Origin: Candidatus Omnitrophota bacterium
GTDB lineage: Bacteria; Omnitrophota; Gorgyraeia; Zapsychrales; Fredricksoniimonadaceae
Direction of reading: 5' to 3'
Assembly (NCBI GenBank): GCA_903860135.1
Contig: CAIOPG010000012.1
Span: forward strand, 1-60,221
Length of the DNA: 60,221 bases
The translations under genes and the position numbers were made by a program. Positions 17,594 to 35,793 of the stretch are shown here, piece after piece. Position 1 is the stretch's first letter. Every line of letters begins with the position of its first letter. The notes under the pieces were generated by a model. It had not been told where the DNA came from. It did no database searches and saw only the letters and a list, made by a program, of their open reading frames with translations.

Positions 17594-17608
17594 AAAAAGG
17601 AGAATGTT

Positions 17609-18304: not shown

Positions 18305-18325
18305 TTAGTGTTGGTTTGATTTCTC

Positions 18326-18393: not shown

Positions 18394-18421
18394 AAAACTA
18401 AAATCATACTTTCAGGATACT

Positions 18422-19090: not shown

Positions 19091-19100
19091 GGATAGACCC

Positions 19101-19922: not shown

Positions 19923-19967
19923 CCATGAAGGTCATGGATCCTTTCTTATGCCTATGGCCGAGATATT

Positions 19968-22847
19968 ATGACCATAAAACAAGCGTTGATTGTCGTCCTT
20001 TCTGGATTGGTTATAATGATATGTCTGACCCCATCATGGGCCAGTAACGCTAATACTTACAAATATTTTATTAATGAAGGTAAGCACGCCATTGAACGCC
20101 GGGATATTCCTAGGGCGCTGCATTGTTTCAAATGGGCGTATCGGATCAATCCCCAGGCATCAGAGCCACTTGATTATCTCAATAATGTGCCTGGCGGTAA
20201 AGCTGTTTTGGATCAGGAAGTGATTTATGCCTCACTCATGGCATCGCGTATCGCCCCTCCGCGCAAATTTCAAGATACGCAAGCACTCATCGACCATATC
20301 AATTTGGTGAAACGCTCCCTGGACAAGATGATACGGCCTGCGGTGACAGTTCCGCCTGTTGCTATGGTGCCTATATCACATCCTGTTACTGAGGCCGTTA
20401 AAAAAGATGAGCCTACGCTCACGGCCACAAAGACTTATACGCGTCAGGGCAAGAAAGCGGTGGAGGATGTCATCCTCCTCGCAGATATAGTCAAAAGTAC
20501 GATACCCAGGCCAACCCTGCGCCTGGAAATCGGCAGAACCATTATTCTTGAAGGCAAAAATATTCAGAAGTTTTTGGTTGTTTCCGGTGAGATCATCGGG
20601 GTCAAGCGGTTGTCGGCCGATCGCCTTCAGGTGGTGGCTGTTATGCGCGGCAGTACCATATTCCACGTTTGGGATGATGCCGGACGAACAACAATCTATA
20701 TGGAGACACTTTTCCCTGATTCTTCTGGGGACAATGGGAATGTGAGGTCTTCGTCGTTTGAACATGCGGCACCGTTCAGGTTCAGTTATTCCAATAACTG
20801 GAGCGGTTATTATATGGCACCGCGCGGTTCGCGCATGAAGCGTCAGGGTCTATCCTTTAACGAAAACGTTGGGGTTAACGGGGAGACGCCGTATGGGTAT
20901 CTAGATTCCTCGGCTTCTCTGTCCGGTTTTAATCCTGTCAGGGATATTCCTGCCTATACCTTGGGCTTGACCGGTATCCCTGTGCCTGGCACAAGGGCTA
21001 TGAGTGTCCGGCTTTTTGATTCGACAAGGTCTTTGTCGCCGCTGAGTATGCCAGGGGCGCATTTACGTGGTGCGTTTGTGGATCTCCAAGCATTTAAGGA
21101 AGCTGTTGGCTTTTCCGTAACTCACGGGCAGTTACAGCCGACTTTTGGTTTTTCCATGTTATCAAGCGCACAGCAATCTTATCTGGATGCTTTTAAGGTG
21201 GTGCTTTTCCCCAATGACCGGGATCATCATTATGCGTTTAATTATGCCCGAGGATCCGGGGCAGATCGCAATACCGCTCTTACTGCGCAGGCTTACTCGG
21301 TCGAAGGTGTTTACAGGATTAACAAGGTGCTTTTCAATGCGGAGCTGGCTCGCGATAGCCGCAATACCGCTTCTATCGGGGGGATGTCCTGGGGCGGCAA
21401 GGGATGGGATTCAGCCTTGAGTTTTAAGAATATCAACAAGAATTTCACAACCGTGACCAGTGCGCCTTCCGGTCAAGGGACAACCAGTATGCTGTGGACA
21501 TCCAATATCAACGCTGAATCATACTCTGCTGGCACCATGCTGGATGTGACCCGGCAAAGGCTTTACACAAATCCGAATAATCCGGATGCGCTGGATTATG
21601 ATGCCAACGCTAACATAAATATCCCGTTGAGTCCGAAACTTGCGTTTGCCAGCCGTGTGCGTTATGTGGATACCGCCGGAGATATATTGCCCCGCCACAG
21701 CATGGGCCTTAACACCGGTCTTACCAGGAACATAGAGGTCTGGGGGGGGCGGAATGGTTCTGTTTATGTGAGCGGAGGGTATCAGGAAAGCACCTATCCG
21801 GATAATCCGACGTCAGATTACCATTCGTATGATGCAGCGACAGGCGTCAATCTTTCGCTGACAAAAAACCTGTCATGGTATCTTAGTTATCAATATTCGT
21901 GGCTCATTGAGGGGCTTTCAGATTTTATGTCGAATCCGATGGCAACAACAACCGGTCTATCGTATAACAGGCAATTCATGGAACGTCTTTCCGGGAATTT
22001 CAGCCTTTCTTATCGTAATGAACAGAGCACCCAAAGCCTCAACAGTTTCATGGCAGGTGAGGATAGTGTTGGTCTGTCCGGTTCGCTGACGTATAATCCC
22101 AAGAATGACCTGAGCTATTTCATTGATTCGAATGTACAGAATGTTTGGTCAAAGGCCGGACAGAGTACATCCTATACCAGCATGGATCTGCGGATGGGGA
22201 TGCGCGGTATCTGGGGTACTTCTCTTGTATGGGATCCCAAAGGGGCTGTGTCAGGTGTGGTTTATAAAGACAAAAACGGCAATGGGAAGAAAGATGAGGG
22301 GGAACCAGGCCTTCCTGATATCAAGGTCAAAGCTGGTGAGAAGGAAGCGATTACGGACAAGGATGGGCGGTACCGCATTGAAGTCAAGGGGAAAAGGGTG
22401 AACGTGACACCGCTGATGGAAACGATCCCGACAGGTTATATTTTTTCGACGCCTTCATTTTTTAAAGTGGATATTCTTCACGGCATTGCGCGGGTCGTCG
22501 ACTTCGGACTGACAACCCAATCAGGGATTTACGGCATTGTGTTTGTAGATAAAAACGGGAACAACCAGCCTGACAGGGGGGATCAGTTTCTTCAGCACGT
22601 CAAGATTTTGCTTGATGGCAAAAAAACTATCATGAGCGATTCACAGGGTACTTATTTTTTCCAGAAAGTTTCCGAGGGCGGGCATAATATTGCCATAGAC
22701 ATGAAAACCTTGCCACAAGGCCTTATCCCTCTTATTAAGATCAAGAATGACATTGTGGTGACTGAGGGCATCAATTATATATTCCATATCCCCATGAGGC
22801 AGAAGGCTGTCGAGCCTCCTATAGAACCACAACGCTCCGAAAAGTGA
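19968..22847 (+). CDS. large outer-membrane protein: TPR-like segment, CpaC/RcpC-type pilus N-terminal domain, beta-barrel, two C-terminal Cna-B/CarboxypepD_reg-like domains
   Basis: Signal peptide ...TPSWASNA. LRLEIGRTIILEGKNIQKFLVVSGEIIGVKRLSADRLQVVAVMRGSTIFHVWDD resembles the 'pilus formation protein N-terminal' domain. A long region has alternating-hydrophobic strands (LSLTKNLSWYLSYQYSW, LSGNFSLSYRNEQ). Two repeats follow: GVVYKDKNGNGKKDEGEPGLPDIKV...TDKDGRYRIE and GIVFVDKNGNNQPDRGDQFLQHVKI...SDSQGTYFF. Confidence 0.6.
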   Translation: MTIKQALIVVLSGLVIMICLTPSWASNANTYKYFINEGKHAIERRDIPRALHCFKWAYRINPQASEPLDYLNNVPGGKAVLDQEVIYASLMASRIAPPRKFQDTQALIDHINLVKRSLDKMIRPAVTVPPVAMVPISHPVTEAVKKDEPTLTATKTYTRQGKKAVEDVILLADIVKSTIPRPTLRLEIGRTIILEGKNIQKFLVVSGEIIGVKRLSADRLQVVAVMRGSTIFHVWDDAGRTTIYMETLFPDSSGDNGNVRSSSFEHAAPFRFSYSNNWSGYYMAPRGSRMKRQGLSFNENVGVNGETPYGYLDSSASLSGFNPVRDIPAYTLGLTGIPVPGTRAMSVRLFDSTRSLSPLSMPGAHLRGAFVDLQAFKEAVGFSVTHGQLQPTFGFSMLSSAQQSYLDAFKVVLFPNDRDHHYAFNYARGSGADRNTALTAQAYSVEGVYRINKVLFNAELARDSRNTASIGGMSWGGKGWDSALSFKNINKNFTTVTSAPSGQGTTSMLWTSNINAESYSAGTMLDVTRQRLYTNPNNPDALDYDANANINIPLSPKLAFASRVRYVDTAGDILPRHSMGLNTGLTRNIEVWGGRNGSVYVSGGYQESTYPDNPTSDYHSYDAATGVNLSLTKNLSWYLSYQYSWLIEGLSDFMSNPMATTTGLSYNRQFMERLSGNFSLSYRNEQSTQSLNSFMAGEDSVGLSGSLTYNPKNDLSYFIDSNVQNVWSKAGQSTSYTSMDLRMGMRGIWGTSLVWDPKGAVSGVVYKDKNGNGKKDEGEPGLPDIKVKAGEKEAITDKDGRYRIEVKGKRVNVTPLMETIPTGYIFSTPSFFKVDILHGIARVVDFGLTTQSGIYGIVFVDKNGNNQPDRGDQFLQHVKILLDGKKTIMSDSQGTYFFQKVSEGGHNIAIDMKTLPQGLIPLIKIKNDIVVTEGINYIFHIPMRQKAVEPPIEPQRSEK

Positions 22848-23130: not shown

Positions 23131-23328
23131 ACGAGAAAACCCCGGAGGGATATTCTTGATTTCGGCAACCAGACAACCTTTCTCATTAACAGTATGAGTT
23201 AAGGCTCACGGCTTTGCGTCCTACTCTTTCAAGTAGTTTGCCTTTTTCGGATACAAAGAACAGGAGCTGCATGACACAATCAAAGTATAACATTTGAAAA
23301 ATCAAATTGCTATTTTTTATCGGGGGCA

Positions 23329-24927
23329 TTGTTGAATACAGCAAAAGACGTAATTTTCTTTGGATTTGATCGCAAGATACCTTTTTATCTGATGGGCATC
23401 TTCCTGTTCATGATATCGCTGCTGACGTATATCAATGCGTTCACGAACGGTTTCATGTTCGATGATTTCACCTGTTTATTTGGTCAGTATAGTGTCGCGG
23501 GGAGATCTTTTGCTGATATATTCATGCATAATCAGGCTGGTTTCTACCGGCCGGTGGGGCATCTTCTTTTGTGGATCTCGGCGGGCGTATTTGGGAATAA
23601 TGTTATCGGCTATCATGCGGTTAATTTTTGTCTTTTTCTTTTGATGCTTTTCTTTTTTGTGATCATCGCTGAGAAATTAACGCAGAATAGGATGCTGGCT
23701 TTTATGGCGGGGTTGCTGTATGCGGTACATCCGATCAACGGCATGTCGGTCAATTACATAACAGCCTGTAATAATTCGTCGTATGTGTTGCTGATGCAAC
23801 TTAGTTTAATTTCATATATCTATTATACGGAGTCCAGACGGAAGTATTTATATGTACTCAGCTTCATTGGCTTCATATTGGCGTTCCTTGCCCATGAAAT
23901 TGCCCTCTTATTACCATTCTTTCTTATTGCCTATCGTATTGTTTGTAAAGGCGCCCGCTTGAAGCCATCGTTTTATTCGGTTGCTCCTTTTATTGTATTG
24001 GCAGGCTGTTATTTTCTTTTTCGGTCGAATGGAACGGCGGTTTTTGTTCATAAAATAAATATTCCAATAAGTGCGACCGGCGACCTGATGGCATATTTCT
24101 CGACATGGGTGGATCTTATACGCTGGTATTTTACTCAATTGATTTATCCCGCAAAAGTTGTTTTTTTATGGAGTGCCAAGATGGGATCCGCGCGTTTTAT
24201 CGTTAATGCGGCTATATTTCTTCTGGGATCGATCGGGTTTTGTTACTTTATTATAAAGAACGGGAAGAACTGGAAGTCTTTTGCCTTACTTTTATTTCTG
24301 GGGGGGTGCGCACCTACATTTTATAGTTGTTTTGTGTTTTCACCGAAGGTATGGCCTTATTTTGAGCCGCATTGGATGTATTTTTCTCAAATGGGTTTCT
24401 TTATACTGGCTGGCGCTTTCTTCTACTATATAATCAAGAGAAATAGGTTGGTTGGACATTTGTTGATCGTTGCGGTACTGTGTTTGTTTATTGTTTGCTC
24501 CTGGCAGTATAATTCAAAGTGGCGGACGCAGGAGGAGTACTCTCGTTACTGGTTGTCCGTAAATCAGGGGAATTTAACAGCCTTTTATGGGCTGGGAACT
24601 TCTTTGATGGATAAAGGTGATTATGCCGGGGCAGTTGATGTCTTCAGATCGGCCAATACGCTCCTGGGGAATATTTCTGTGGCCATGGCTGTCGCTCTAG
24701 GGCATTGCTATGATGAGTTGGGTAACGGTACAGAGGCATTAGTAATATTTAATACGGTCACTAAAGAGAATCCCGGAAATGCACTTGTTTATCATTATAA
24801 AGGTTTGTACCTGATGAAACGTGGGGATCATGCTTTAGCCAGAGAAGCTTTTTTAAAATCCGTTAAACTGGATCCTAAATTTTCTTTATCGTATCCCTAC
24901 CTTCAGGATACACGCCTGAAGAAATAG
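23329..24927 (+). CDS. polytopic membrane protein with C-terminal TPR repeats (TMTC/PMT_2-like GT-C glycosyltransferase candidate)
   Basis: About 10 hydrophobic segments, an FMFDDF acidic motif in the first loop (GT-C hallmark), and C-terminal TPR-like repeats (GLGTSLMDKGDYAGAVDVF..., YHYKGLYLMKRGDHALAREAFLKSVKLDP). The start is uncertain: TTG at 23329, with ATG alternatives downstream. Confidence 0.55.
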   Translation: MLNTAKDVIFFGFDRKIPFYLMGIFLFMISLLTYINAFTNGFMFDDFTCLFGQYSVAGRSFADIFMHNQAGFYRPVGHLLLWISAGVFGNNVIGYHAVNFCLFLLMLFFFVIIAEKLTQNRMLAFMAGLLYAVHPINGMSVNYITACNNSSYVLLMQLSLISYIYYTESRRKYLYVLSFIGFILAFLAHEIALLLPFFLIAYRIVCKGARLKPSFYSVAPFIVLAGCYFLFRSNGTAVFVHKINIPISATGDLMAYFSTWVDLIRWYFTQLIYPAKVVFLWSAKMGSARFIVNAAIFLLGSIGFCYFIIKNGKNWKSFALLLFLGGCAPTFYSCFVFSPKVWPYFEPHWMYFSQMGFFILAGAFFYYIIKRNRLVGHLLIVAVLCLFIVCSWQYNSKWRTQEEYSRYWLSVNQGNLTAFYGLGTSLMDKGDYAGAVDVFRSANTLLGNISVAMAVALGHCYDELGNGTEALVIFNTVTKENPGNALVYHYKGLYLMKRGDHALAREAFLKSVKLDPKFSLSYPYLQDTRLKK

Positions 24928-24940
24928 GGGGTATTACCTG

Positions 24941-26122
24941 ATGAAAAAGCTTTTATTTGTAACGCATGAACAGTTTTGGCCTTTAAGCGGCGGTTGTACC
25001 GCCGGTAATTTCCATATCCTGAAATATCTTGCCAGCCATGGCTTTGAGGTGACGATTTCAACGCCTCTTTATACGGATGTTTCATCACTTGAAAAAGAGC
25101 ATGGTTTCAAGTTTAAACCTTTTTCGCCTTATTATATGCATCGCGGCATTAAGTTTCGCATCATCAAATATTTGGGTTACGGGATTTTATCTTTATTTCA
25201 TCTGATTAAGATATTTTTGAATAATAAATATGATGTTGTTTATGTCAATAATGCGGTGTTATCATTTCCTTTTTTATTCCTGCGGCCTTTTCTCAAGTCT
25301 TTGCTTGTTATCCGCTATACCGATTTCTTAAGCGGTTTTTTGCATGAGGATAAGCGTTGTTCTTATTGGCTCATTAAAGTATTAATGTATTATGAGTATC
25401 GTATTGCGGCTCTTTTTGATAAAGTCTTTGTCATAACTCCGGCGATGAAGCGTAGTTTATGCGGTAAAGGCAACCTTCCGGAAAGCAAGGTCATTGTTAC
25501 TTTTGACGGGGTGGATGCCGATGTGTTCAATGTAAACAGCTTTGCCGATGCTTTCCGGCAGGTGATCCGCATGGATTTGAATATCCCTTTGGATGTCCGC
25601 GTTGTCATGTTCCATGGCACCGTTGAGCCGCACCATGGCGAAGATATATTAGCTGGTATTATCCTGGAATTATTAAGAAGGGACTTGTCTGTTCATATTT
25701 TGTTGATCGGTGTTGGCTTTAGTCATTTAAGCATAAGGGATGCGTTGAAGGCAGAAGCGAGGGTGTGTATCCTTGATTTTGTTCCGTACGAAAGGATTCC
25801 GTCTTACATCAATGCCAGTGACGCTGGGATAATCCCTTATCCAAAGAATGAGTCAATGGATATGGTCCTGACATTAAAACTTTTGGAGTATTTATCGTTG
25901 GGGGTGCGTTGTATTACTTTTGACCTTGATAGTATAGAAGAAATCTTCGGGCAATATGATTTTGTAAAGATATCACATAGCAGGGGGGCGTTTGTAGATA
26001 ATATTGCTTTTGTTTTAATGGAGGGCAAGTCAAAAGTATCTCCGGGGATCATTCGCCAGGATTTTACATGGGATAAAGTGGCTGAAAAGATGCGCCGGGT
26101 GCTCAGCAGCTACTCTAAATGA
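24941..26122 (+). CDS. GT4-like glycosyltransferase
   Basis: N-terminal MKKLLFVTHEQFWPLSGG and a GT-B-like C-terminal half (VMFHGTVEPHHG..., LLEYLSLGVRCI). Confidence 0.6.
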   Translation: MKKLLFVTHEQFWPLSGGCTAGNFHILKYLASHGFEVTISTPLYTDVSSLEKEHGFKFKPFSPYYMHRGIKFRIIKYLGYGILSLFHLIKIFLNNKYDVVYVNNAVLSFPFLFLRPFLKSLLVIRYTDFLSGFLHEDKRCSYWLIKVLMYYEYRIAALFDKVFVITPAMKRSLCGKGNLPESKVIVTFDGVDADVFNVNSFADAFRQVIRMDLNIPLDVRVVMFHGTVEPHHGEDILAGIILELLRRDLSVHILLIGVGFSHLSIRDALKAEARVCILDFVPYERIPSYINASDAGIIPYPKNESMDMVLTLKLLEYLSLGVRCITFDLDSIEEIFGQYDFVKISHSRGAFVDNIAFVLMEGKSKVSPGIIRQDFTWDKVAEKMRRVLSSYSK

Positions 26123-26132
26123 AAGGTATCTT

Positions 26133-27101
26133 GTGGGTATTGTCAACAGGCTTAAGATAGCCAGTGCTTTTATAATGCAGCAGCCTGTTGTGGCAGGGTT
26201 CCCTGTTGAGATCGGTATCGAGATGACCAATCGTTGTAATCTCAGGTGCAAAATGTGCGCGCGAGAAGCCATGACGCGGCCGGTAGGCGATATGCCGCTG
26301 ACTTTGTTAAAAAAGATCATTGATGAAGTCAGGGGCTATGTTGAAATGATCTATTTGCATGGTGACGGAGAACCTTTGCTGCACAAAGATATCTTTGAGG
26401 CTATCGCGTATGTCAAAGACAGCGGCGTCAAGGTTGCCCTGTCAACCAATGCGACGCTGCTCAATGAGGAAAAGTCACGTCGATTGATCGCTGCCGAACC
26501 GGATTACCTGATACTGGCGATTGATGGTGCCACCAAGCCAACGTATGAAGGGATACGGATCAACGGCTGTTTTGAGGAAGTCGTTGCCAATGCGGAAATG
26601 TTTCTTGATTTGAAGCGCAAGAGTAACAGCCGTATCCATGTTCTTGTGCAGTTCATTGCGATGAAGGAGAACACAGGAGAAGTTACGGCGTTCATTGATC
26701 ATTGGAAGAAATTTAAGCCGGACTGTATCAGGATCAAATCTTGTGTGGACCTTGTCGGCAAGAAAGGGGTAACAACTTTTCAACACCCTTGTTTTTATTT
26801 ATGGCGGCAGATCATGATCGACTGGGATGGTACGGTGTTCCCTTGTTGCGTGGATACAAATTCTCTTCATCATCTTGGGAACCTGGCAGAAGTTCCACTC
26901 GCCGATATCTGGAATGGCTCTCTGCTGCAGGCCATGAGAAAGAAGCACATTCAAGGCGGGCAGGCAGGCATTGATATCTGCAGAAATTGTGATATGAATC
27001 AGTTCACTATATTCACTATGGCGGTAGCAACGTTGGTTGACGGGTATCAGATCAAGAAATATTTGCCTTATTGGGAAAGATTATTCCCCAAGGCCAGTTA
27101 A
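26133..27101 (+). CDS. radical SAM protein with SPASM/twitch C-terminal domain
   Basis: CNLRCKMC (CxxxCxxC) cluster. C-terminal CFYLW...DGTVFPCC...GN...IW...C.NC auxiliary-cluster pattern. GTG start. Confidence 0.85.
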   Translation: MGIVNRLKIASAFIMQQPVVAGFPVEIGIEMTNRCNLRCKMCAREAMTRPVGDMPLTLLKKIIDEVRGYVEMIYLHGDGEPLLHKDIFEAIAYVKDSGVKVALSTNATLLNEEKSRRLIAAEPDYLILAIDGATKPTYEGIRINGCFEEVVANAEMFLDLKRKSNSRIHVLVQFIAMKENTGEVTAFIDHWKKFKPDCIRIKSCVDLVGKKGVTTFQHPCFYLWRQIMIDWDGTVFPCCVDTNSLHHLGNLAEVPLADIWNGSLLQAMRKKHIQGGQAGIDICRNCDMNQFTIFTMAVATLVDGYQIKKYLPYWERLFPKAS

Positions 27102-27112
27102 TTCATTAAAGG

Positions 27113-27868
27113 ATGCCGATGGCTAAAGCACTGATCATCATTCCGACGTACAATGAAAGCCAAAATATGAAAGAACTGATTCCGGTCATTTTTCATCAGG
27201 TGGCACGCAATGAATTTGATCTGGAGTTTCATATTCTTGTTGTGGATGATAATTCAGCGGATGGGACAGGCCAGGTCATTGAGGCTTTGGCTCATGATTT
27301 TCCGGTTTACCTTTTAAAGCGGGAGAAGAAACTGGGGTTAGGGACGGCGTATATTGCAGGGTTTAAGTGGGCCCTGGAGCGCGATTATCAGTATATTTAT
27401 GAGATGGATGCGGACTGGTCGCATGATCCGGTCTATCTGCTCTCATTTATCCATAAGATGCAGGAGGATAATGCTTCGTGTGTGATCGGGTCGCGTTTTT
27501 ATCAGTGGCGTGTTTCTGTTGTTAATTGGGACATTAAAAGGTTGATCTTGAGCCTTGTGGGGCACAGGTACGCCCGCTTTGTTTTAGGGCAGATGGATAT
27601 TTACGATACCACGTCGGGATTTAAATGTTTCAGGCGGGAAGCCATCGAGGCCTTGGCATTGGATAATATCACCTCCAACGGGTATATTTTTCAACTTGAA
27701 ATTAATTACAGGCTTTTTAGAAAGAAGATGCGGATCGCGGAGATTCCCATCATATTTAAAGACAGGGTTTACGGGGTTTCAAAATTGTCAGCAGGGGTGA
27801 TTTACGAAGGCTTATGGTTACCGCTGAGACTGAAGCTTCTTTTGATGATCCACGGGAATAAATTTTGA
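27113..27868 (+). CDS. GT2 polyprenyl-phosphate glycosyltransferase (Dpm1/Ppm1/GtrB-like)
   Basis: IIIPTYNESQN, ILVVDDNSADGT, GLGTAYIAGF, and EMDADWSH (DxD/ED region). Confidence 0.8.
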   Translation: MPMAKALIIIPTYNESQNMKELIPVIFHQVARNEFDLEFHILVVDDNSADGTGQVIEALAHDFPVYLLKREKKLGLGTAYIAGFKWALERDYQYIYEMDADWSHDPVYLLSFIHKMQEDNASCVIGSRFYQWRVSVVNWDIKRLILSLVGHRYARFVLGQMDIYDTTSGFKCFRREAIEALALDNITSNGYIFQLEINYRLFRKKMRIAEIPIIFKDRVYGVSKLSAGVIYEGLWLPLRLKLLLMIHGNKF

Positions 27869-29367
27869 TGCCTACTAAGATCATCTTGGCGAATTTGAGC
27901 GGGATAAAGTCGATGCCCGACGGCCGTTGGCGGCATCTGGTAAAAGCCGGGTCGCGTTGGCCTATGACGATCGGGTATGCCAGGCATGTTGATTATTATC
28001 CTTTTCCGTTCTCTCTGGCATACGGGACAGCCTTGTTGAAGCGCTCGTTCCCTGATCTCAATGTGCAGGGGATCGATGGTGTTGTCGATGATCTGGATGA
28101 TGATGCGTTGTTCAGACGTTTGCAGTTGTCTCCTCCCGATATTTTTATCAGTGAAGTGACGCTGATCACCCTGAACGATGATCTGGCATTTATTAAACGG
28201 GTCAAGTCATCCTTCAAGTGTATGGTTATTGTTACCGGTGTCTATCCATCTGTATTCCTAGAAAACATATTCTTAAATGATACCCCGATCGACTATGCCA
28301 TTTATGGCGAATATGAGCTGTCCTTGGATAGGCTTGTCAGGGTTGTCGTTGATGGTAATGATCCGGTAGCCGCACGATGTATCCCGGGGATAATCTTCAA
28401 GAACAATGATGGTATCTTTAAACATAAACAGCGTGCGGCGATCCAGGATCTGAATGCGCTGCCTTGCCCTGACAGGCAGGATTTTCCGCCGGATAAGTAT
28501 GCGGATTTTGCTGTTCATTTTCCTTGTGTCAGCATTATGGCCAGCCGTGGCTGTCCTGCTGGTTGTGTTTATTGTGTGGAGCGCCATGTGATCTATGCAT
28601 CGCCAGGTTACAGGATGAGAGATCCTTTGATGGTTGTTGATGAAATGCTTTACTGCCGGGATGTTTTGGGCGCGAAACAATTTTATTTTGATGATCAAAG
28701 CCTAGTGGTGAACAAAGGATATATTACCAGTCTTTGCGCGGAGATGCAGCGGCGGGCGTTGAATACCCCGTGGACCTGCATGGCCGATGCCATGTTCCTT
28801 GAACGGCCTTCGTTGGATATGATGGCGGAGGCGGGATGTATCGGTATCAAATTTGGTGTCGAGTCGGCTAATGAAGCAATATTAAAGCATATCCACAAGC
28901 CACTTGATCTTATAAAAGTTAAAGAAGTTGTTGCCTGGTGCCGTGCGCTCAAGATATCAACGCATGCCACATTCTGTGTCGGGCTGCCGCATGAGTCGGA
29001 ACAAACACTCGGGCAGACAACAAGTTTTATTAAGGCATTGGATGTGGATAGTGCGCAGGTATCACGCGCGGTGCCTTATCCGGGGACGCCTTTTTATACA
29101 TGGGCTAAAGAAAACGGGTTTCTGCGTACAGAGGATCTTGATTTATTTGACGGGATGTCTTCATCCGTTCTTAATTATCCTCAGCTTTCATCAGGGAAGA
29201 TCGATCTGTGGTATGAAAAGATATCCAGGATAGCAGCACGCAGGAAATTGATGAATTATATAAGGCATCCGTGGAGGTCTTTTTTTGTTTTGATTTATAT
29301 GTTAAAGCATCAGGGATTCAAGAAACCATTCAGTGCACTGACTGTATTTCTTGGACGGAGTTATTAA
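27868..29367 (+). CDS. B12-binding-domain radical SAM protein (paralogue 1)
   Basis: N-terminal Rossmann-like B12-binding region and ASRGCPAGCVYC radical SAM cluster. The ATG at 27868 overlaps the upstream stop (TGATG). Confidence 0.8.
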   Translation: MPTKIILANLSGIKSMPDGRWRHLVKAGSRWPMTIGYARHVDYYPFPFSLAYGTALLKRSFPDLNVQGIDGVVDDLDDDALFRRLQLSPPDIFISEVTLITLNDDLAFIKRVKSSFKCMVIVTGVYPSVFLENIFLNDTPIDYAIYGEYELSLDRLVRVVVDGNDPVAARCIPGIIFKNNDGIFKHKQRAAIQDLNALPCPDRQDFPPDKYADFAVHFPCVSIMASRGCPAGCVYCVERHVIYASPGYRMRDPLMVVDEMLYCRDVLGAKQFYFDDQSLVVNKGYITSLCAEMQRRALNTPWTCMADAMFLERPSLDMMAEAGCIGIKFGVESANEAILKHIHKPLDLIKVKEVVAWCRALKISTHATFCVGLPHESEQTLGQTTSFIKALDVDSAQVSRAVPYPGTPFYTWAKENGFLRTEDLDLFDGMSSSVLNYPQLSSGKIDLWYEKISRIAARRKLMNYIRHPWRSFFVLIYMLKHQGFKKPFSALTVFLGRSY

Positions 29368-29393
29368 GTAATGGTGTGTTCACGCTTGAGGCC

Positions 29394-30779
29394 ATGATGC
29401 GTATTGTACTCGTCCATGCACCCGTAGAGCGGATCATTGAAGAATATGATGCGCCCGCGTATCCGCATCTTGGATTAGCCTGCCTGGCGACCTATGCCCG
29501 GCGCAAAGAATTTGACGTCGCTGTGATCGATGCCAAGTTTGAACGCTTGACACTGCCGTCTCTTTTGACGAGGATCAAGGCCTTGGGGGGAGAAAGGCTT
29601 GTCATTGGTTTAACGGCCATGACGCATGACATCACCAGGAATGCTTTTGTTGCCGGGGAATTAAAACGGCACTTCCCCGGGGTAACGGTGCTTATCGGCG
29701 GTGTTCACGTTTCTGCATTGCCACGACAAACCTTTCAGGAGTTCCCGACATTTGATATTGGCGTCATTGGTGAAGGCGAGGTAACATTCATTGAACTCCT
29801 GTCGGCGTTGAGAGATGGAGGTCCATTATCGGCCGTGCGTGGCCTTGTTTACAGGGAAGGCCCTGAAGTCATATTATCAGAGGGCAGGGGCTGGATCGAT
29901 GATCTTGATGTGGTTGGTTATCCTGACTGGGATCTTTTTCCTTCTGCCCAAGAATATCCGGTTAATATTGGCAGGGGATGTCCTGTCCCGTGCATTTTTT
30001 GTATGCGGGCTTCGGGTACAAAAAGCCGTTTCAGGTCAGCCGCCAATATCCTTGAAGAGTTAGATTTGCTCAACAGAAAATACAAGCCGCAGTATGTGCG
30101 TTTCTTTGGTGATGATTTTGCGGCTGACAAAGTGCTTACGCACACCATCCTGGAAGGGCTTTCACAGATCAAACCGGTCTTCAAATGGTGTGCCGGGATG
30201 CGTGTATCTAATATTGATAAAAGCATCCTGCAGGCGATGAAGAGGGCCGGGTGTGAGCATTTTGAAATAGGTGTTGAGTCGGGGAATAAAGACATTTTAA
30301 AGGCGATCAGGAAGGGGATCGCCCTTGAAAAAGTAGAGAAAGCTGTCCGCCTTGCCAAAGAGGTCCGGCTGGATTGTTGGTGTTATTTCATTCTGGGGCA
30401 TCCCCATGAGACAGAAAAGACGGCCCTGGATACGATCAATATCCTTTGTAAGTTAAATCCGACGCAAGCGGCGGTGGGCATTATGGTTCCCTATCCCGGC
30501 ACTGAAATATGGAATATGGCTGTCAGGGGTGAGGGCGGGTATACATTGTTATCCCATGACTGGCAGGACTATAATAAACAACTGGGGAATGCACTGGAAC
30601 TGGAACATCTTTCAAGGCGGCAATTGGAATGCCTGCAAATGCGTGCTTACGTTATGCTCTTTGTATCTAATTTCAGATTTCTTGATTTTTTAAAATTTTG
30701 TTGGCGTTACCGGCGAGAAGCGTATTTCTTCTTGCGGCATTATCTGACCCGGCTGTTCAATCCCAACAGGTTGAAGTGA
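29394..30779 (+). CDS. B12-binding-domain radical SAM protein (paralogue 2)
   Basis: MMRIVLVHAP... B12-binding-type N-terminus (GLTAMTHD, LIGGVHVS) and IGRGCPVPCIFC cluster. The track start at 29271 lies inside the previous gene. Confidence 0.8.
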   Translation: MMRIVLVHAPVERIIEEYDAPAYPHLGLACLATYARRKEFDVAVIDAKFERLTLPSLLTRIKALGGERLVIGLTAMTHDITRNAFVAGELKRHFPGVTVLIGGVHVSALPRQTFQEFPTFDIGVIGEGEVTFIELLSALRDGGPLSAVRGLVYREGPEVILSEGRGWIDDLDVVGYPDWDLFPSAQEYPVNIGRGCPVPCIFCMRASGTKSRFRSAANILEELDLLNRKYKPQYVRFFGDDFAADKVLTHTILEGLSQIKPVFKWCAGMRVSNIDKSILQAMKRAGCEHFEIGVESGNKDILKAIRKGIALEKVEKAVRLAKEVRLDCWCYFILGHPHETEKTALDTINILCKLNPTQAAVGIMVPYPGTEIWNMAVRGEGGYTLLSHDWQDYNKQLGNALELEHLSRRQLECLQMRAYVMLFVSNFRFLDFLKFCWRYRREAYFFLRHYLTRLFNPNRLK

Positions 30780-32533
30780 TGGTTGTCTGTATAAAATATA
30801 ATAGATCGATCGTTGAAGCCATGCTTTTTGTACTAGTGCTTTTGATCGCGTTATTCGTAGGCTTCTTTGATCCACTGCACTTGACACATCCACCTCATGG
30901 GGATCTTTTACTCAATGCGAATGCCGTATTTAATATTCATAATCATATCCCTTATGTGGTCAAAGGGAATTTACAATGGATGAATGAAAGAGAATATTAT
31001 TTTTATGTATCGCCACTGACAGATTATTTTTCGGCTTTATTCTGGGATAACAAGAAAGGCTTGATCGAGAATGCCATTCCTCCTGTAGTTTGGGGTGTTA
31101 TATTTACATACAGCTTGGCGTATTTATTTGCGCGAAGGTATTTCGGGAGAAAAGTTGCTTTTGCCACTATCTTTCTCATGTCGCTTTCTTCCTACTGGTA
31201 TAATTATACGGTCAGAAGCCTTTATGCGCCGTGGGCTTTCCTGCCCGGCTTCTCTGTTTTATTTTGTTGGATATATTTGAAGTTCCGGCAGAGTGGGAAT
31301 CTTTGGTTTATGGTTGTATCCGGCGGTATTGCGGCGATCGCTTTTTACTTTGTTACATGGCCATTCATTGTTTTAGTTATCCCGTCTTTGTTGATCATGA
31401 ACTTCATGCGGCGTGCTGAACCCGGCAAATCTAAATTGATGGCAGGTTTCTTTATCTTTCTGGCCGTGTTCACCGTCTTGGTTGCGATTAAGGAATACCT
31501 GTTTGTGGCAACAGGATTGAGATATCCGGGTGATCCTGGCGGGTTGGAAACATATTTTAAGATCTTTTTTCAAGGGAGGTGGGTTTCCGAGAAAGCAGTT
31601 TCTACTTTCTCATGGGTCAATATTTTTTCAAGTATGGGTGACAACATCGCCAATGTTTTGAAAATGATCTTTATCCCGACAGCTGTTTATCCCGGTGGGA
31701 ATCTTCTCTCTGCCCGCCCCCTTGATGCGGCTTTACCATTAATGACGCCGCTGGTCACCCTAGCGTTTATCCCGGGTCTTGCTTTTATGTTCTTCAAGAA
31801 AAGCAGTGAGGATATCAATAAATTCCTGCCGTGCATTGTTTTACTTACAATCGGTATGCTGGCTTTTCTTCTGGCGGCGCCTGTCCCGAGGTATATGCTG
31901 ACTATTTTCCCTTTTGTCTACATGATCGCGGCTTACTATATCGTCGGTGTTTATAACCGTTGCACGATGAATCAGACAAAACGGATTATATTTTTTCTTT
32001 TGATCTCGGCCCTGCTTCTGTTCAATATCAAGGAAACTGTTCAAGACTATATGGGGAAAGTCTTGCCCGCTTATTCCCGATTTGAACACAATTGTTATAA
32101 CAGTATCCAATGGCCTTTTGAGTCGCTGAAGACGTTTCTAGATGAAAACAAGGGTGATTATGACCTTATTGTTATTCCCAACAATTTTACTTCGCAAATG
32201 ATAACTTATTTAAGATTATGGCCATGGCTGGTCCAGGTGGACGGACACCCAGCGGCGAAGGCGATCGCCAGCTATTCATTGTTTCTCAAGGGCCTGCCTT
32301 TCTTGCGCGCTGAACAATACCCCAACGTGTTGATCATAACTAATGTATATAATAGTTTATTGAATGATGAGATATGCCCCGGGTGGCCTAACTTGATGCC
32401 TTATGATAAAACAGCGCTGACGCCGAATGATGTCGAAGCCTTATTTCCTCAGGCAAAGTTTCTCAGGTATGCCGGCTGTACGGTTTATTCGCAGATGCTG
32501 GCATTGTATGAAGTTGACAGGCGCAAGCTGTAA
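30779..32533 (+). CDS. polytopic membrane protein, GT-C (ArnT/PMT_2-like) glycosyltransferase candidate
   Basis: At least 10 hydrophobic segments over ~430 aa, followed by a ~150-aa soluble C-terminal domain. TGATG overlap with the upstream gene. Sits next to a polyprenyl-P-sugar synthase-like GT2. Confidence 0.45.
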   Translation: MVVCIKYNRSIVEAMLFVLVLLIALFVGFFDPLHLTHPPHGDLLLNANAVFNIHNHIPYVVKGNLQWMNEREYYFYVSPLTDYFSALFWDNKKGLIENAIPPVVWGVIFTYSLAYLFARRYFGRKVAFATIFLMSLSSYWYNYTVRSLYAPWAFLPGFSVLFCWIYLKFRQSGNLWFMVVSGGIAAIAFYFVTWPFIVLVIPSLLIMNFMRRAEPGKSKLMAGFFIFLAVFTVLVAIKEYLFVATGLRYPGDPGGLETYFKIFFQGRWVSEKAVSTFSWVNIFSSMGDNIANVLKMIFIPTAVYPGGNLLSARPLDAALPLMTPLVTLAFIPGLAFMFFKKSSEDINKFLPCIVLLTIGMLAFLLAAPVPRYMLTIFPFVYMIAAYYIVGVYNRCTMNQTKRIIFFLLISALLLFNIKETVQDYMGKVLPAYSRFEHNCYNSIQWPFESLKTFLDENKGDYDLIVIPNNFTSQMITYLRLWPWLVQVDGHPAAKAIASYSLFLKGLPFLRAEQYPNVLIITNVYNSLLNDEICPGWPNLMPYDKTALTPNDVEALFPQAKFLRYAGCTVYSQMLALYEVDRRKL

Positions 32534-32567
32534 CTTTTATTAACATTATTTCTTTTGAGCCATTGAC

Positions 32568-33458
32568 ATGACCTTTGAAAATCCTGCTTTAAGAATTAAG
32601 AATTTACAGGACATTATTTGTTGTCCTGTTTGTAAGAACAGCCTGACTTTTGATGGTAATTCTCTTTGGTGTGCGCCTTGCGGGTTGGCGTACACGATCA
32701 CGGAGGGGATCCCTGACCTTGTTGTTCATGATCTTGAATATTGCGACCAAATACGGGTGGAATGCGAGACGGATTTCTTTAGTTCTCAATTTGGACAACG
32801 GAATGGTTATCAGGTGTATGCCCTGGATGAGTATCCGCGTATCCTTGACGCCATGCAGTTAGGGCATAACAATAACAATGACCGGAAGAAAGTATTAAGC
32901 ATTGGTTGTGCCTCGGGGGTATTTGAACGTGAGTTAATGAAGCGGAATTATCAGGTTGTCGGTGTTGATCTTGTAACGAGTTTACTGCAAAGGTGTGAAT
33001 TCTTAACCGTGCGCGCGGATGCCGTGAGTTTACCGTTTATCATGAATGCCTTTGATCATGTGATCTGTATCGGTGTTTTGCATCATGTGCCGGAGGCCTT
33101 GCATGCCAAGGCGTTGCGCGAGATCCTGCGGGTTTTAAAGCCTGGGCAAACAGCGCATTTCTTTGAACCCAATGCTACAACCCGTAGCGCGATAACGCAT
33201 CCAGCCTCGCAGTTCCTTAAGGCCAGGACATTAATTGAAAAGCCTATTTCTTTGCCGGCCTTCCAGCGGCTGGCAACAGCGCTTTTCTCGAAGGTGAATG
33301 TGTCTTATATAAAAGAAGTCAAACTCGTGAATTTACATAAAATGTATACTTTTTTATATCAGGTTGTTAAAATGATTTTCGATTGTATCCCGGGAACTAA
33401 CAACAAAGAATTCTTTGTTTTAATAGCGCATAAACAGCGCTCTATGACTGGCGGTTGA
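32568..33458 (+). CDS. Trm112-like zinc-ribbon fused to class I SAM-dependent methyltransferase
   Basis: CPVCKNSL...CAPCGLAYTITEGIPDLV (Trm112/YbaR-like), then VLSIGCASGVFE (motif I) and VICIGVLHHV. Confidence 0.75.
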   Translation: MTFENPALRIKNLQDIICCPVCKNSLTFDGNSLWCAPCGLAYTITEGIPDLVVHDLEYCDQIRVECETDFFSSQFGQRNGYQVYALDEYPRILDAMQLGHNNNNDRKKVLSIGCASGVFERELMKRNYQVVGVDLVTSLLQRCEFLTVRADAVSLPFIMNAFDHVICIGVLHHVPEALHAKALREILRVLKPGQTAHFFEPNATTRSAITHPASQFLKARTLIEKPISLPAFQRLATALFSKVNVSYIKEVKLVNLHKMYTFLYQVVKMIFDCIPGTNNKEFFVLIAHKQRSMTGG

Positions 33459-33464
33459 TTTTTT

Positions 33465-34895
33465 ATGGCAAAGATGATTTTCGTTCAAGATGTCGCGTTT
33501 GAAGCTTTTGGTGTGGAATATTTATCTGCTTATGTGAAATCAAAAGGTCATACGGTTGATCTGATCATCCTGAACCAGGAAAAGAACAATTTCAATCCGG
33601 TAGCCTATTTGGCGGATCAAAAGCCTGATGTTGTCGGTTTTTCGATAACGACCATTGATCATCAGTGGTCAACGGCATTGGCGAAGAAAATTAGACAGGA
33701 AGAAAGGCTTGCTGGTACACTCGTTATTTTCGGCGGAGCGCATCCCACCATGTCTCCGTCCATGATCGAAGATGACGGGGTCGATATGATTTGTGTGGGC
33801 GAGGGGGAGTATGCCCTGGCTGAACTTTTGGACCATATCGATAAAGGTGTCCGCGATCACTCCACGATCAAGAATATTTATGTCAAAAAAGACGGGCATG
33901 TTTTCAAGAATGAATTAAGGCCTTTAATCGAGAACTACGATCTGCTGCCTTTTCCTGACAGGGATATTTATTTCAAATATCCTATTTTAAGGGATATGAC
34001 CACGAAAAAATTCTTTTCAGCCAGGGGTTGCCCTTACCACTGTACTTATTGCAATAATCACTATTATCAGAAGTTATTTGCGGGGTTGGGTAAATATGTT
34101 GTTTATCGCCGCCCGGAGCACGTCATTGAAGAAATTAAGTACGTCCGGCAGAAGTACGGATTTAAACATGTTTATCTCGCAGCTGAGACGGTTACAACCA
34201 ATCACCCATGGTTAAAGAAGTTCCTTGAATTATACAAGAAAGAAATAGCAGTTCCCTTCTCTTGTTTATCAAGAGTGAATGAACTTGATGAAGATATCAT
34301 TAAAAATCTGGCTGATGCCGGGTGTTATTTCACATCTTTCGGGCTTGAAAGCGGCAGTGATCGCCTCAGGAATGGCTTGCTTAAGCGTGGAATGTCGCGA
34401 GAGAAATTGCTTGAGGTTGCAGCCTTATTGCATAAATATAAAATCAAGTTCCTGGTGCACCAGATTTTTGCGTTGCCGACAGAAACGATTGAGGAAGCAT
34501 TTGAGACTGTCCATATGTGTGTGCGCATGAAGGCCGATTCAACGTGGAGCACTATTTTTCAACCGTATAAAGGGACCGAGATCTATCAGTATTGTAAAAC
34601 GAACAATTTGCTTGTATCAGAAGAAGTGTCTGAAAATGTGAATAGTTTATATGCGCAGAGCACGCTTAAACAGCCGCATATAAAAGAAATATCGAATTTG
34701 CAAAAACTTGTGTTGATCTGCCTTAAATGCCCGGTAGCCATACCTTTAATCAGAGCCGCCATCAAGCTACCCAATAATATATTCTTTGAATTTATATCTA
34801 AGATCAATATGTTGATCAGTTTCAGGTTAAGGTATCGCCTTGGGTATGTTGAAATGCTGGGGATGTATTTGCGTTCCAAGAAACGTTTCGGTTGA
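33465..34895 (+). CDS. B12-binding-domain radical SAM protein (paralogue 3)
   Basis: DVVGFSITT and IFGGAHPT (B12-binding-type), with the SARGCPYHCTYC cluster. Confidence 0.8.
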   Translation: MAKMIFVQDVAFEAFGVEYLSAYVKSKGHTVDLIILNQEKNNFNPVAYLADQKPDVVGFSITTIDHQWSTALAKKIRQEERLAGTLVIFGGAHPTMSPSMIEDDGVDMICVGEGEYALAELLDHIDKGVRDHSTIKNIYVKKDGHVFKNELRPLIENYDLLPFPDRDIYFKYPILRDMTTKKFFSARGCPYHCTYCNNHYYQKLFAGLGKYVVYRRPEHVIEEIKYVRQKYGFKHVYLAAETVTTNHPWLKKFLELYKKEIAVPFSCLSRVNELDEDIIKNLADAGCYFTSFGLESGSDRLRNGLLKRGMSREKLLEVAALLHKYKIKFLVHQIFALPTETIEEAFETVHMCVRMKADSTWSTIFQPYKGTEIYQYCKTNNLLVSEEVSENVNSLYAQSTLKQPHIKEISNLQKLVLICLKCPVAIPLIRAAIKLPNNIFFEFISKINMLISFRLRYRLGYVEMLGMYLRSKKRFG

Positions 34896-34999: not shown

Positions 35000-35073
35000 G
35001 CGAGAGTAGTTCAGTGGTAGAACCTTAGCCTTCCAAGCTGATGACGCCGGTTCGATTCCGACCTCTCGCTCCA
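35000..35073 (+). tRNA. tRNA-Gly (anticodon UCC)
   Basis: Manual fold. Acceptor GCGAGAG/CTCTCGC, D arm GTTC-AGTGGTA-GAAC, anticodon arm TTAGC-CTTCCAA-GCTGA. T arm GCCGG-TTCGATT-CCGAC has one C-A mismatch. CCA is encoded. Confidence 0.85.
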
Positions 35074-35088
35074 TTTTACTGGAATTAA

Positions 35089-35793
35089 ATGAAAATCACC
35101 TTATTGATCCCCACATTGAATGAAGAGACCGGCATGCGTTCTGTCATGCCGCGTGTGGACACGTCCCTTTTTGAGCAGATACTTGTGGTCGACGGGAACT
35201 CTAAAGATAATACGGTCGCTGTGGCACGCAAGATGGGCTATGATGTCGTATTGCAGAAAAGTCCCGGCATCCGCGGGGCGTACATGGATGCCCTGCCGTT
35301 TGTCAGGGGGGAGGCGGTGCTTACCTTTAGTCCTGACGGGAATTCTATCCCCGAGCTGCTCAAGCCTTGTATCGCCAAGTTTGAAGAAGGGTACGATATG
35401 GTGATCGTTTCGCGTTATGCCCAAGGGGCACGCAGTTACGATGATGATGCCGTTACGGCTTTCGGGAACTGGTTGTTTACAGCGAGCATCAATCTTTTTC
35501 ATGGCGGTAAATACACCGATGCCATGGTCATTTACCGCATTTATCGCAAAAGCCTTATCGAGCAACTGGCGCTGGATCAGGATGCGAGCTACGCGTTTGA
35601 AGAAAAACTTTTTCGGACAAATGTCAGTTGGGAACCATTGCTGTCTATTCGCGCCGCCCGTCACAAGCTTAAGGTCGCCGAGATCCCTGGCGATGAGCCT
35701 GCGCGTGATGGTGGCGAACGCAAACTGCAGGTCCTTAAATGGGGTGCCGCGTATTACTGGCAGATCCTGCGGGAAATATTTATCCGTCTATGA
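35089..35793 (+). CDS. GT2 glycosyltransferase (CsbB/GtrB/Dpm1-like polyprenyl-phosphate sugar synthase candidate)
   Basis: LLIPTLNEE, ILVVDGNSKDNT, TFSPDGN (DxD-equivalent). Short soluble GT2 of the lipid-carrier-charging type. Confidence 0.7.
   Translation: MKITLLIPTLNEETGMRSVMPRVDTSLFEQILVVDGNSKDNTVAVARKMGYDVVLQKSPGIRGAYMDALPFVRGEAVLTFSPDGNSIPELLKPCIAKFEEGYDMVIVSRYAQGARSYDDDAVTAFGNWLFTASINLFHGGKYTDAMVIYRIYRKSLIEQLALDQDASYAFEEKLFRTNVSWEPLLSIRAARHKLKVAEIPGDEPARDGGERKLQVLKWGAAYYWQILREIFIRL

Follow-up and report, generated by a model that had tools for sequence, protein, structure and literature searches.

A conserved set of radical SAM enzymes interleaved with glycosyltransferases in an Omnitrophota genome, a candidate pathway for a modified envelope sugar

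A 60,221-nt stretch of DNA from a Candidatus Omnitrophota bacterium (contig CAIOPG010000012.1 of assembly GCA_903860135.1, part of a 305-kb metagenome scaffold; hereafter the window) was examined for the function of a gene cluster between positions 23329 and 34895. The homoserine dehydrogenase encoded in the window falls into one 90% cluster with a protein named Candidatus Omnitrophota bacterium. Nine open reading frames (ORFs), numbered W1 to W9 in their order, occupy positions 23392-34895 of the + strand. An earlier reading of the letters of this DNA (the sequence-only reading) had described here nine co-directional genes in which glycosyltransferases (GTs) of the GT2, GT4 and GT-C types are interleaved with radical S-adenosylmethionine (SAM) enzymes and a methyltransferase; this gene order and domain content were borne out, with corrections to gene starts, to W5, to the GT-C labels and to the presumed paralogy. 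Starts were set by combining the sequence with the genes called on the source scaffold, the corrected ones being 23392 for W1, ~29397 for W6 and 30779 for W7. The genes of the cluster are the following:

23392..24927, + strand: W1, putative membrane PMT_2-type GT-C glycosyltransferase with C-terminal tetratricopeptide repeats (TPR), a lineage-specific accessory (Pfam TPR; PMT_2 through homologues)
24941..26122, + strand: W2, predicted cytoplasmic GT4 glycosyltransferase (GT-B fold), core member (Pfam Glyco_transf_4 and Glycos_transf_1)
26133..27101, + strand: W3, radical SAM enzyme with a SPASM/twitch auxiliary-cluster domain, core member (Pfam Radical_SAM and SPASM)
27113..27868, + strand: W4, small GT2, candidate DPMS/ArnC-like polyprenyl-phosphate sugar synthase (Pfam Glycos_transf_2; PDB match)
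27868..29367, + strand: W5, HpnJ/AprD4-like radical SAM enzyme with a degenerate B12-like N-terminal domain, core member (Pfam Radical_SAM only)
29397..30779, + strand: W6, class B B12-binding radical SAM enzyme (Pfam B12-binding and Radical_SAM)
30779..32533, + strand: W7, putative polytopic PMT_2-type GT-C (ArnT/PMT-like), core member (PMT_2 through orthologues)
32568..33458, + strand: W8, class I SAM methyltransferase with an N-terminal Trm112-like zinc ribbon (Pfam Methyltransf_11 and Trm112p)
33465..34895, + strand: W9, class B B12-binding radical SAM enzyme, the most conserved marker of the cassette (Pfam B12-binding and Radical_SAM)

Gaps between these co-directional genes range from -1 nt, at W4/W5 and W6/W7, where stop and start codons overlap by 1 nt, up to 34 nt, and the nine genes therefore form one operon. 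A scan for promoters and terminators performed at chance level (30 versus 28 expected; 18 versus 13); a plausible promoter-like site was seen at 34946-34974, before the tRNA-Gly gene that follows W9.

A syntenic cassette was found in five further metagenomic loci: an Omnitrophota metagenome-assembled genome (MAG; L003), a hydrothermal-vent contig (L008), a contig from a Logan run (L009), a JGI metagenome contig (L010) and a partial Logan locus (L004). The encoded proteins are 44-71% identical to those of the window, with lower values for W8 (36-43%) and for W7 in L009 and L010 (37-39%). The conserved core consists of the GT4, the SPASM enzyme, the radical SAM enzymes corresponding to W5 and W9, and the GT-C; the GT2, the W6-type enzyme and the methyltransferase are frequent members, and W1 was never present. 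In L003, where orthologues are 57-71% identical, the order is GT4, a membrane protein, SPASM, GT2, W5, W9, W6 and GT-C, while L009 and L010 hold in addition a GT9 heptosyltransferase-like gene directly beside the cassette, MBOAT/AlgX, and more B12-type radical SAM enzymes and methyltransferases. A scan of genome contigs with the W9 alignment, which was pattern-based and insensitive, returned the same Omnitrophota MAG and two matches at 33% identity; the rarity of the cassette among GTDB species is in this respect only suggestive.

The CxxxCxxC motif is intact in all four radical SAM enzymes (CNLRCKMC in W3, CPAGCVYC in W5, CPVPCIFC in W6 and CPYHCTYC in W9). W3 matches Radical_SAM at 68.5 bits and SPASM (PF13186) at 63.3 bits over profile positions 1-67, and its C-terminal domain holds six cysteines, including C-x12-G-x4-C and CxxC. 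Its nearest solved relatives are BtrN, BlsE, GDGT-MAS and DesII; the core aligns to the last three of these, and the auxiliary domain of BtrN aligns to W3 at E 1.3e-11. W3, predicted to be a SPASM/twitch radical SAM enzyme, has orthologues at 52-67% identity and at 39% in Patescibacteria. The methyltransferase W8 (orthologues in L004 and L009) matches Methyltransf_11 at 65.8 bits and Trm112p at 31.2 bits, and W2, assigned to GT4/GT1 by Pfam, has a weak nearest solved relative in MshA and orthologues at 44-60% identity in L003, L008, L009 and L010. Pfam thus upholds the earlier labels of a SPASM radical SAM enzyme, a Trm112-methyltransferase and a GT4 for these three proteins.

The three larger radical SAM enzymes match PF04055 (Radical_SAM) at 52-87 bits. 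A B12-binding domain is present in W6 (62.2 bits, with Radical_SAM at 86.9) and in W9 (68.9 bits, with Radical_SAM at 82.9). W5 gave no match to this domain (PF02310) even at E<=10, and its orthologues reach 15-21 bits versus a cutoff of 32.1; the protein aligns over its full length to models of class-B radical SAM enzymes. For all three the nearest solved structure is AprD4 (for W5 against 6fd2, E 2.5e-18), followed by TokK, CysS, MgmA, OxsB and TsrM, the relatives of W6 being AprD4, TokK, MgmA and CysS. A structural model of W9 (AlphaFold2, AF2; mean predicted local distance difference test score, pLDDT, 95.5), when searched with Foldseek, retrieved MgmA, AprD4, TsrM, OxsB, CysS and TokK (E 1e-17 to 1e-21, TM 0.62-0.74, 14-18% identity); in this model W9 appears about equally distant from all solved class-B enzymes, with a similar overall fold. 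The B12-like domain of AprD4 does not bind cobalamin (PMC12931638), a precedent by which such a domain is in itself no proof of cobalamin binding, and the enzymes of the cluster are accordingly spoken of here as candidate cobalamin users.

Orthologues of W5 are 54-63% identical and make up a single cluster above 50% among 1.84 billion representatives; those of W6 (in L003, L004 and L008) are 58-66% identical and those of W9 57-73%. Since W5, W6 and W9 share only 23-26% identity with one another, each having its own orthologue at 54-70%, they are best viewed as three ancient subfamilies rather than recent paralogues. Of the "three B12-radical SAM paralogues" of the sequence-only reading, the B12-binding domain was therefore retained for W6 and W9; W5 has no Pfam B12 domain, and recent paralogy was abandoned.

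Scores against curated HMMs and comparison with the PDB served to gauge how the enzymes relate to characterised members such as GenK, Fom3, HpnP, HpnR and BchE, in place of a tree. Among curated models HpnJ (TIGR03471) was the best for W5, with 188.1 bits versus a cutoff of 577.6, and it scored 143.3 bits with W6 and 114.0 bits with W9; BchE followed closely in both (140 and 100 bits). One possible explanation for this resemblance is that the operon encodes a glycolipid or membrane-lipid pathway, in which the radical SAM enzymes methylate, cyclise or cross-link a lipid (as do HpnP/R, Grs, Tes/Mss and the ladderane-associated B12-type enzymes) or turn a hexose head group into a cyclitol (as do HpnJ and calditol synthase), and the GTs add the head group. 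W5 also matches a "lipid biosynthesis B12-binding/radical SAM" model at 97 bits, W3 matches tetraether synthase models at 45 bits as well as GDGT-MAS in the PDB, and gpsA lies shortly downstream. The GT2 gene moreover abuts W5 as hpnI abuts hpnJ, HpnI/K/J and Cds acting on lipid-linked hexoses (PMC13459092), and the lipid enzymes Mss and Hbs have been reported in Omnitrophota (10.1101/2023.10.20.563219). However, these scores are far under the cutoffs, HpnJ and BchE are generic top matches for all three large radical SAM enzymes, and the genomic contexts are dominated by nucleotide-sugar, GT and GT-C genes; isoprenoid, fatty-acid, ether-lipid and shc/hpn genes were absent from the window and nine related loci, shc, hpnH, hpnI and hpnK having been looked for among the annotated ORFs. 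A lipid product is on these grounds considered unlikely.

The nearest relatives of the cluster enzymes also include members of antibiotic pathways (AprD4, BtrN, TokK, CysS and ApyD), and a secondary-metabolite cluster with a diffusible product could be envisaged, be it aminoglycoside-like, phosphoglycolipid-like or a ribosomally synthesized and post-translationally modified peptide (RiPP). No 2-deoxy-scyllo-inosose synthase, aminotransferase, prenyltransferase, precursor peptide, protease or exporter was found, however, the intergenic gaps are too short to hide a peptide gene, and the presence of two polytopic GT-Cs and a GT2 resembling dolichol-phosphate-mannose synthase (DPMS) favours glycosylation by way of a lipid carrier, making a diffusible product highly improbable. 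Hopanoid, RiPP, aminoglycoside and mycofactocin readings were each tried and rejected, their defining partner genes being absent and their scores under cutoff.

The GT2 in question, W4, matches PF00535 (Glycos_transf_2) at 95.6 bits and contains the DXD motif as "DAD". Its best solved relative is the DPMS of Pyrococcus (PfDPMS, 5mlz; E 5.8e-27 over residues 5-235) and the next is ArnC (E 2.5e-7); the NCBIfam models AglJ and PpgS score ~60 bits each, under their cutoffs, and orthologues in L003 and L008 are 64-71% identical. Given the match to DPMS and the DAD motif, the earlier label of a Dpm1-like polyprenyl-phosphate-sugar synthase seems reasonable. W7 has ~11 predicted hydrophobic helices and found no Pfam family of its own, and a sequence search of the PDB was empty. 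A word-indexed search of a 5.8-billion-protein database, which scores only candidates having exact 5-residue words in common with the query, returned just two relatives, and both pass the cutoff of 26.1 bits for PF13231 (PMT_2): P0001 (57% identity, 29.7 bits) and P0002 (46%, 42.2 bits). The orthologues in L009 and L010 were found later. A comparison of three orthologues showed D31, H37, H40 and D42 to be invariant in the loop after the first transmembrane helix (TM1), the loop in which the catalytic acids of GT-C enzymes reside. The proposal of an ArnT-like GT-C thus draws support from the polytopic structure of W7 and from PMT_2 in its orthologues, if not from a domain match in W7 itself. 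Together, a DPMS-like GT2 and two PMT_2-type GT-Cs make the periplasmic-face glycosylation suggested earlier a reasonable expectation.

The second of these GT-Cs, W1, shows TPR matches at residues 403-525 (Pfam) behind a polytopic N-terminal domain with 7-8 hydrophobic segments and an "FDDF" motif after TM1; its homologues at 42-48% identity carry both PF13231 and TPR. It shares this arrangement, a polytopic N-terminal domain (PMT_2 by way of homologues) and C-terminal TPR, with PMT/TMTC enzymes (GT39/GT105). Unlike TMTC, W1 lacks DUF1736 (PF08409), the TMTC signature, which is also absent from its close homologues, and the N-terminal 404 aa matched no Pfam family at E<=1. The previous designation "TMTC-like GT-C with TPR" was accordingly narrowed: TPR and, through the homologues, GT-C were kept, and the likeness to TMTC appears to be one of architecture only. 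Homologues of W1 sit in housekeeping or pilin/type II secretion system (T2SS) contexts and no other cassette has a counterpart, which suggests that W1 is a lineage-specific accessory outside the conserved cassette.

W1 bears directly on a different acceptor, namely that the PMT_2 enzymes pass the modified sugar not to lipopolysaccharide (LPS) but to proteins that are secreted or lie on the surface, pilins for example or the signal-peptide proteins encoded close by. This would agree with the PMT_2 and TPR architecture, with the label of protein O-mannosyl-transferase given to some distant homologues, with the position of one W1 homologue among pilin and T2SS genes, with the five signal-peptide proteins encoded directly upstream, with the F5/8 type C lectin domain on the W7 orthologues of L004, L009 and L010, and with the occurrence of the wider family in organisms that have no LPS. 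Nevertheless, conservation of the cassette does not extend to W1, related populations that keep the cassette lack the genes for secreted proteins upstream of it, and in three loci the cassette adjoins lipid A/core and GT9 genes; we consider protein O-glycosylation improbable as the main role, slightly more so than a lipid product.

More distant relatives were examined for the company they keep. W9 has more than 1400 relatives, and the contexts of three of them, at 38-45% identity, were inspected (one each from Patescibacteria, Elusimicrobia and a Diapherotrites archaeon of the DPANN group). All three loci hold GT2, GT4 and GT-C-type membrane proteins (PMT_2, YfhO, PTPS_related, DUF2079), as well as LPG_synthase_TM, MBOAT, methyltransferases, nucleotide-sugar enzymes and more B12-type radical SAM enzymes; none of them holds lipid-synthesis genes. 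Among the relatives of W5 (30-38% identity) are fusions to GT4 (P0174), to TPR and GT2 (P0192), to Methyltransf_11 (P0196), and to SPASM and extra B12-type radical SAM modules, which reproduce the composition of the operon in a single chain. The distant glycosylation contexts and the W5 fusions, with no lipid genes among them, make the strongest case for placing the radical SAM enzymes in a glycosylation pathway. The unusual chemistry on a sugar or lipid predicted by the sequence-only reading is hence strengthened on its sugar side, by synteny, by contexts in three phyla, by the fusions and by the sugar-acting solved relatives; C-methylation, epimerisation and other specific reactions remain suggestions.

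Many relatives of W5 (P0168-P0310) are 700-2600 aa long and consist of 2-4 radical SAM modules joined to GT4, GT2, methyltransferase or SPASM. These long proteins may correspond to the multi-enzyme giant proteins that have been reported for Omnitrophota (bioRxiv 10.64898/2026.06.07.730766).

The DNA upstream of the operon encodes dprA, topA, xerC/D, waaA, lpxK and an lpxL-Elm1 fusion, together with two genes that contain GT4 (in one of them fused to GT9), another three GT9 genes and an ORF with a sub-threshold GT9 match, and is a lipid A/core region. Two of these genes are unusual in their make-up: at 6553-8502 (+ strand) an LpxL-like lipid A acyltransferase is joined to a Mito_fiss_Elm1 domain, and at 8499-10607 (+ strand) a GT4 is joined to a GT9 heptosyltransferase-like domain in one 702-aa protein.

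From the domains, the operon, the conservation of the cassette, its association with glycosylation genes and the fusions, a mechanism can be proposed with candidate substrates, step order, reaction types, cobalamin dependence, flipping step and acceptor. W4, as a DPMS/ArnC-like GT2, would transfer a hexose from its nucleotide-activated form to polyprenyl phosphate on the cytoplasmic side of the membrane. W3, W5, W6 and W9, with the methyltransferase W8, would then tailor the lipid-linked sugar or its nucleotide precursor, the likely reactions being oxidation or epimerisation, deoxygenation or ring rearrangement, and C- and O/N-methylation. After flipping, W7 as a PMT_2 GT-C would pass the product to an envelope acceptor at the periplasmic face. 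W2 may build or extend the acceptor or the lipid-linked intermediate in the cytoplasm, and W1 could be an additional transferase specific to this lineage, with proteins as its probable acceptors. The neighbouring genes, namely waaA, lpxK, the lpxL fusion and five GT9-containing genes, one of them sub-threshold, would make LPS (lipid A or core) the favoured acceptor in this Omnitrophota genome. We put the probability of this reading, in which radical SAM enzymes tailor a sugar linked to a lipid carrier (or to a nucleotide) and a GT-C then transfers it to the envelope, with LPS as the favoured acceptor here, at roughly one half. It is supported by the solved relatives that act on sugars: AprD4 for W5, W6 and W9, and BtrN, BlsE and DesII for W3.

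Several observations weigh against it. No enzyme of the cluster reaches the cutoff of a curated NCBIfam model, so that all reaction types are extrapolations from relatives that are 14-30% identical, and the best NCBIfam match of W6 is a RiPP enzyme, ApyD (157 bits versus a cutoff of 750). B12-type radical SAM enzymes are known also to methylate or cyclise lipids (HpnP/R, Grs, Hgm) and to modify peptides. On the side of the transferases, W7 itself fails the PMT_2 model, and its AF2 model, built from a 3-sequence alignment (pLDDT 48, predicted TM-score 0.39), was too poor for a fold search and left the GT-C fold unconfirmed; no GT2 lies beside the cassette in L009 and L010, and the window operon contains no flippase gene of the GtrA, ArnE/F or LPG_synthase_TM type. 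As Patescibacteria and DPANN archaea have no LPS, LPS cannot be the acceptor family-wide. Finally, no RNA-seq run holding the sequence was found, matches being confined to DNA runs from lake and freshwater metagenomes.

A bolder version of the proposal is that cobalamin-type and SPASM radical SAM enzymes act on a polyprenyl-phosphate- or nucleotide-linked hexose to give a multiply C-methylated, deoxygenated or ring-contracted (cyclitol-like) sugar, which GT-C enzymes place on the envelope, and that this undescribed surface-glycan chemistry is widespread in ultra-small or host-dependent lineages (Omnitrophota, Patescibacteria, DPANN, Elusimicrobia). We offer it tentatively and regard it as less likely than not.

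Comparison with characterised systems helps to place the cluster. Like GtrA/GtrB/GtrC, ArnC/ArnE-F/ArnT and CsbB/YfhO, it combines a small GT2 resembling a polyprenyl-phosphate-sugar synthase with polytopic GT-C-type transferases, and it adjoins lipid A and core genes. Unlike these systems it has no flippase gene, it has four radical SAM enzymes and a methyltransferase interleaved, and a GT4 is one of its core members; to our knowledge no characterised Gtr, Arn or CsbB system shows such interleaving. With HpnI-HpnK-HpnJ and calditol synthase (Cds) it shares a GT2 gene abutting an HpnJ-like radical SAM gene (W4/W5), but it lacks hopanoid genes and an HpnK-type deacetylase, and W5 scores 188 versus 577.6 bits. 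For HpnJ and Cds, a radical rearrangement of a lipid-linked hexose has been proposed (PMC13459092). Carbons of sugars or cyclitols are the targets of the radical SAM enzymes of aminoglycoside pathways, among them the sugar 1,2-diol dehydratase AprD4, the dehydrogenase BtrN and the cobalamin C-methyltransferases GenK/GenD1; the closest solved structure is AprD4 for W5, W6 and W9 and BtrN for W3, and the non-binding B12-like domain of AprD4 has its match in the degenerate domain of W5. The cluster differs from them in its low identity (14-18% in the structural alignment of W9), in having no aminoglycoside core genes and in its envelope-glycosylation context. It does not correspond to a known O-antigen or capsule pathway: in addition to the unreached NCBIfam cutoffs, no Pfam or NCBIfam match to Wzx, Wzy, Wzz, WaaL or an ABC exporter was seen for the ORFs between 12.7 and 39.9 kb.

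Antibiotic pathways and the hopanoid and calditol head groups provide the known cases of sugars tailored by radical SAM enzymes; we know of none in lipid-carrier/GT-C envelope glycosylation, nor was any met in the literature searched. Neither was a description of the cassette found there, the literature searched lying mostly outside subscription journals, which is no proof of absence. What is known here is glycosylation by a lipid-carrier GT2 and a GT-C; what is new is the conserved, interleaved set of four radical SAM enzymes, which is described in no curated family and in no paper found. The cassette probably builds an unusually modified cell-surface sugar. It spans candidate phyla that live as episymbionts or predators and are not yet culturable, for which surface chemistry is probably central to host attachment. 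For enzymologists it offers a compact, defined set of 8-9 genes to express and, if the reading is true, new reaction types or substrates for the largely uncharacterised B12-type radical SAM superfamily; for geochemists and glycobiologists it predicts unusual C-methylated or carbocyclic sugars in anoxic freshwater biomass.

The features surrounding the operon that bear on its origin are the following:

35000..35073, + strand: tRNA-Gly(TCC) (ARAGORN; Rfam tRNA 65 bits)
35089..35793, + strand: second small GT2, 16 nt past tRNA-Gly, context, possibly a further lipid-carrier sugar synthase (Glycos_transf_2 59 bits)
36788..38944, + strand: 718-aa membrane protein whose C-terminus weakly resembles YfhO, perhaps a third GT-C, listed as context (PF09586 22.7 bits versus a cutoff of 28.5)
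23161..23252, - strand: cyclic di-GMP (c-di-GMP)-I riboswitch, pointing away from the operon and outside it (Rfam RF01051 75.9 bits versus a gathering score of 35)
16235..22847, + strand: five signal-peptide proteins with no assigned function, low-GC neighbouring DNA outside the cassette (GC 0.45-0.48)

The region has a GC content of 43.7% versus 51.5% for the rest of the window and 51-53% for the flanks, and it is the GC minimum of all same-size segments (position 23301). Two earlier hand counts proved exact (36.7%, given as 37%, in the 60-nt line at 24001 and 65% in that at 9301). Its codon usage correlates with that of the flanks at 0.875, versus 0.979 between the two flanks. The deviant composition claimed before is thus real, with the qualification that the tract of low GC and deviant codon usage starts already at 16235. 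GC1, GC2 and GC3 are all lower in the cluster, and part of the low GC reflects the amino-acid composition of membrane proteins, with F, Y, L, I and N overrepresented in what the cluster encodes; surface-glycan loci are, besides, usually low in GC. In other genomes the cassettes have a GC of 0.33-0.45 and lie within 4 points of their hosts, save L004, whose flank is too short to judge, and the 8-point gap seen here would fit acquisition from a relative of lower GC.

The sequence-only reading had the nine genes end exactly at tRNA-Gly and took this boundary, with the composition, to suggest horizontal acquisition. In fact the tRNA starts 104 nt past the W9 stop, and co-directional envelope genes (GT2, gpsA, YfhO-like) run on beyond it; the tRNA is therefore embedded within the array and does not mark its end. 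The YfhO-like 718-aa protein shows weak similarity to the 889-aa membrane protein inside the L003 cassette. A recently acquired island inserted at tRNA-Gly would account for the GC and codon usage, and the GC of the cluster lies within the range of relatives in lower-GC genomes (0.38-0.45); the depth of k-mers over 15.5-40.0 kb in the source sample, 0.65-0.8x that of the flanks, and the position of a tRNA-Ser before the cassette of an Omnitrophota MAG point the same way. However, the partial tRNA-Gly 3'-end repeat that such an insertion was expected to leave is not to be seen, there being no tRNA-Gly fragment of at least 11 nt elsewhere in the window on either strand, and no integrase, transposase or other mobility gene lies between 12.7 and 39.9 kb; the single tyrosine recombinase gene, of XerC/D type, is at 3410-4270 beside topA and dprA, 19 kb upstream of the cluster. 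Two related lake populations from two other studies (X3 and X6, 92-99% identity) also speak against such an insertion. Both retain the two flanks and the whole cluster at even depth, with a divergence of 0.8-5.7% in the cluster versus 1.5-7.9% in the flanks, and have about zero depth over 16.0-22.7 kb, from which it follows that the strain-variable element is the upstream block of five signal-peptide proteins. Horizontal acquisition at the tRNA boundary is accordingly a weak proposition, and the insertion of a recent island there is judged improbable.

In the MAG just mentioned (nDJH15bin6), tRNA-Ser(CGA) (L005 2587-2675) lies ~120 nt before the GT4 that opens the cassette. This second cassette abutting a tRNA gene, with a different tRNA and on the other side, is a lead only. 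In the source run the k-mer depth was 289-351 over 15.5-40.0 kb versus 459 and 428 in the flanks, a drop that extends as far as tRNA-Pro (39944-40019) and suggests a heterogeneous population, some members of which carry another version of the entire envelope region.

Within the upstream block at 16235-22847 (+ strand), a 959-aa protein matches SdrD_B and T2SS/T3SS pil_N, the others having no Pfam matches; with its signal peptides and its absence from X3 and X6, this is a strain-variable block of surface or secreted proteins. The c-di-GMP-I riboswitch precedes an 85-aa signal-peptide ORF (23076 to 22819, - strand) in the gap 5' of the operon, and a second, similar aptamer is present in the same genome, on a 12.3-kb contig in run X1 that matches 23162-23242. 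Just past tRNA-Pro, a small ORF (~40111-40485, + strand) has a weak match to PilZ, a c-di-GMP receptor; together with the riboswitch it hints at c-di-GMP control around the envelope region. Beyond 40 kb the downstream DNA carries amino-acid biosynthesis and housekeeping genes. At 59014-59401 (+ strand) a tRNA-Asn(GTT), missed by the standard tRNA scan and recovered with aragorn -i, is split by a 312-nt group I intron (RF00028 at 59112-59353, 61 bits).

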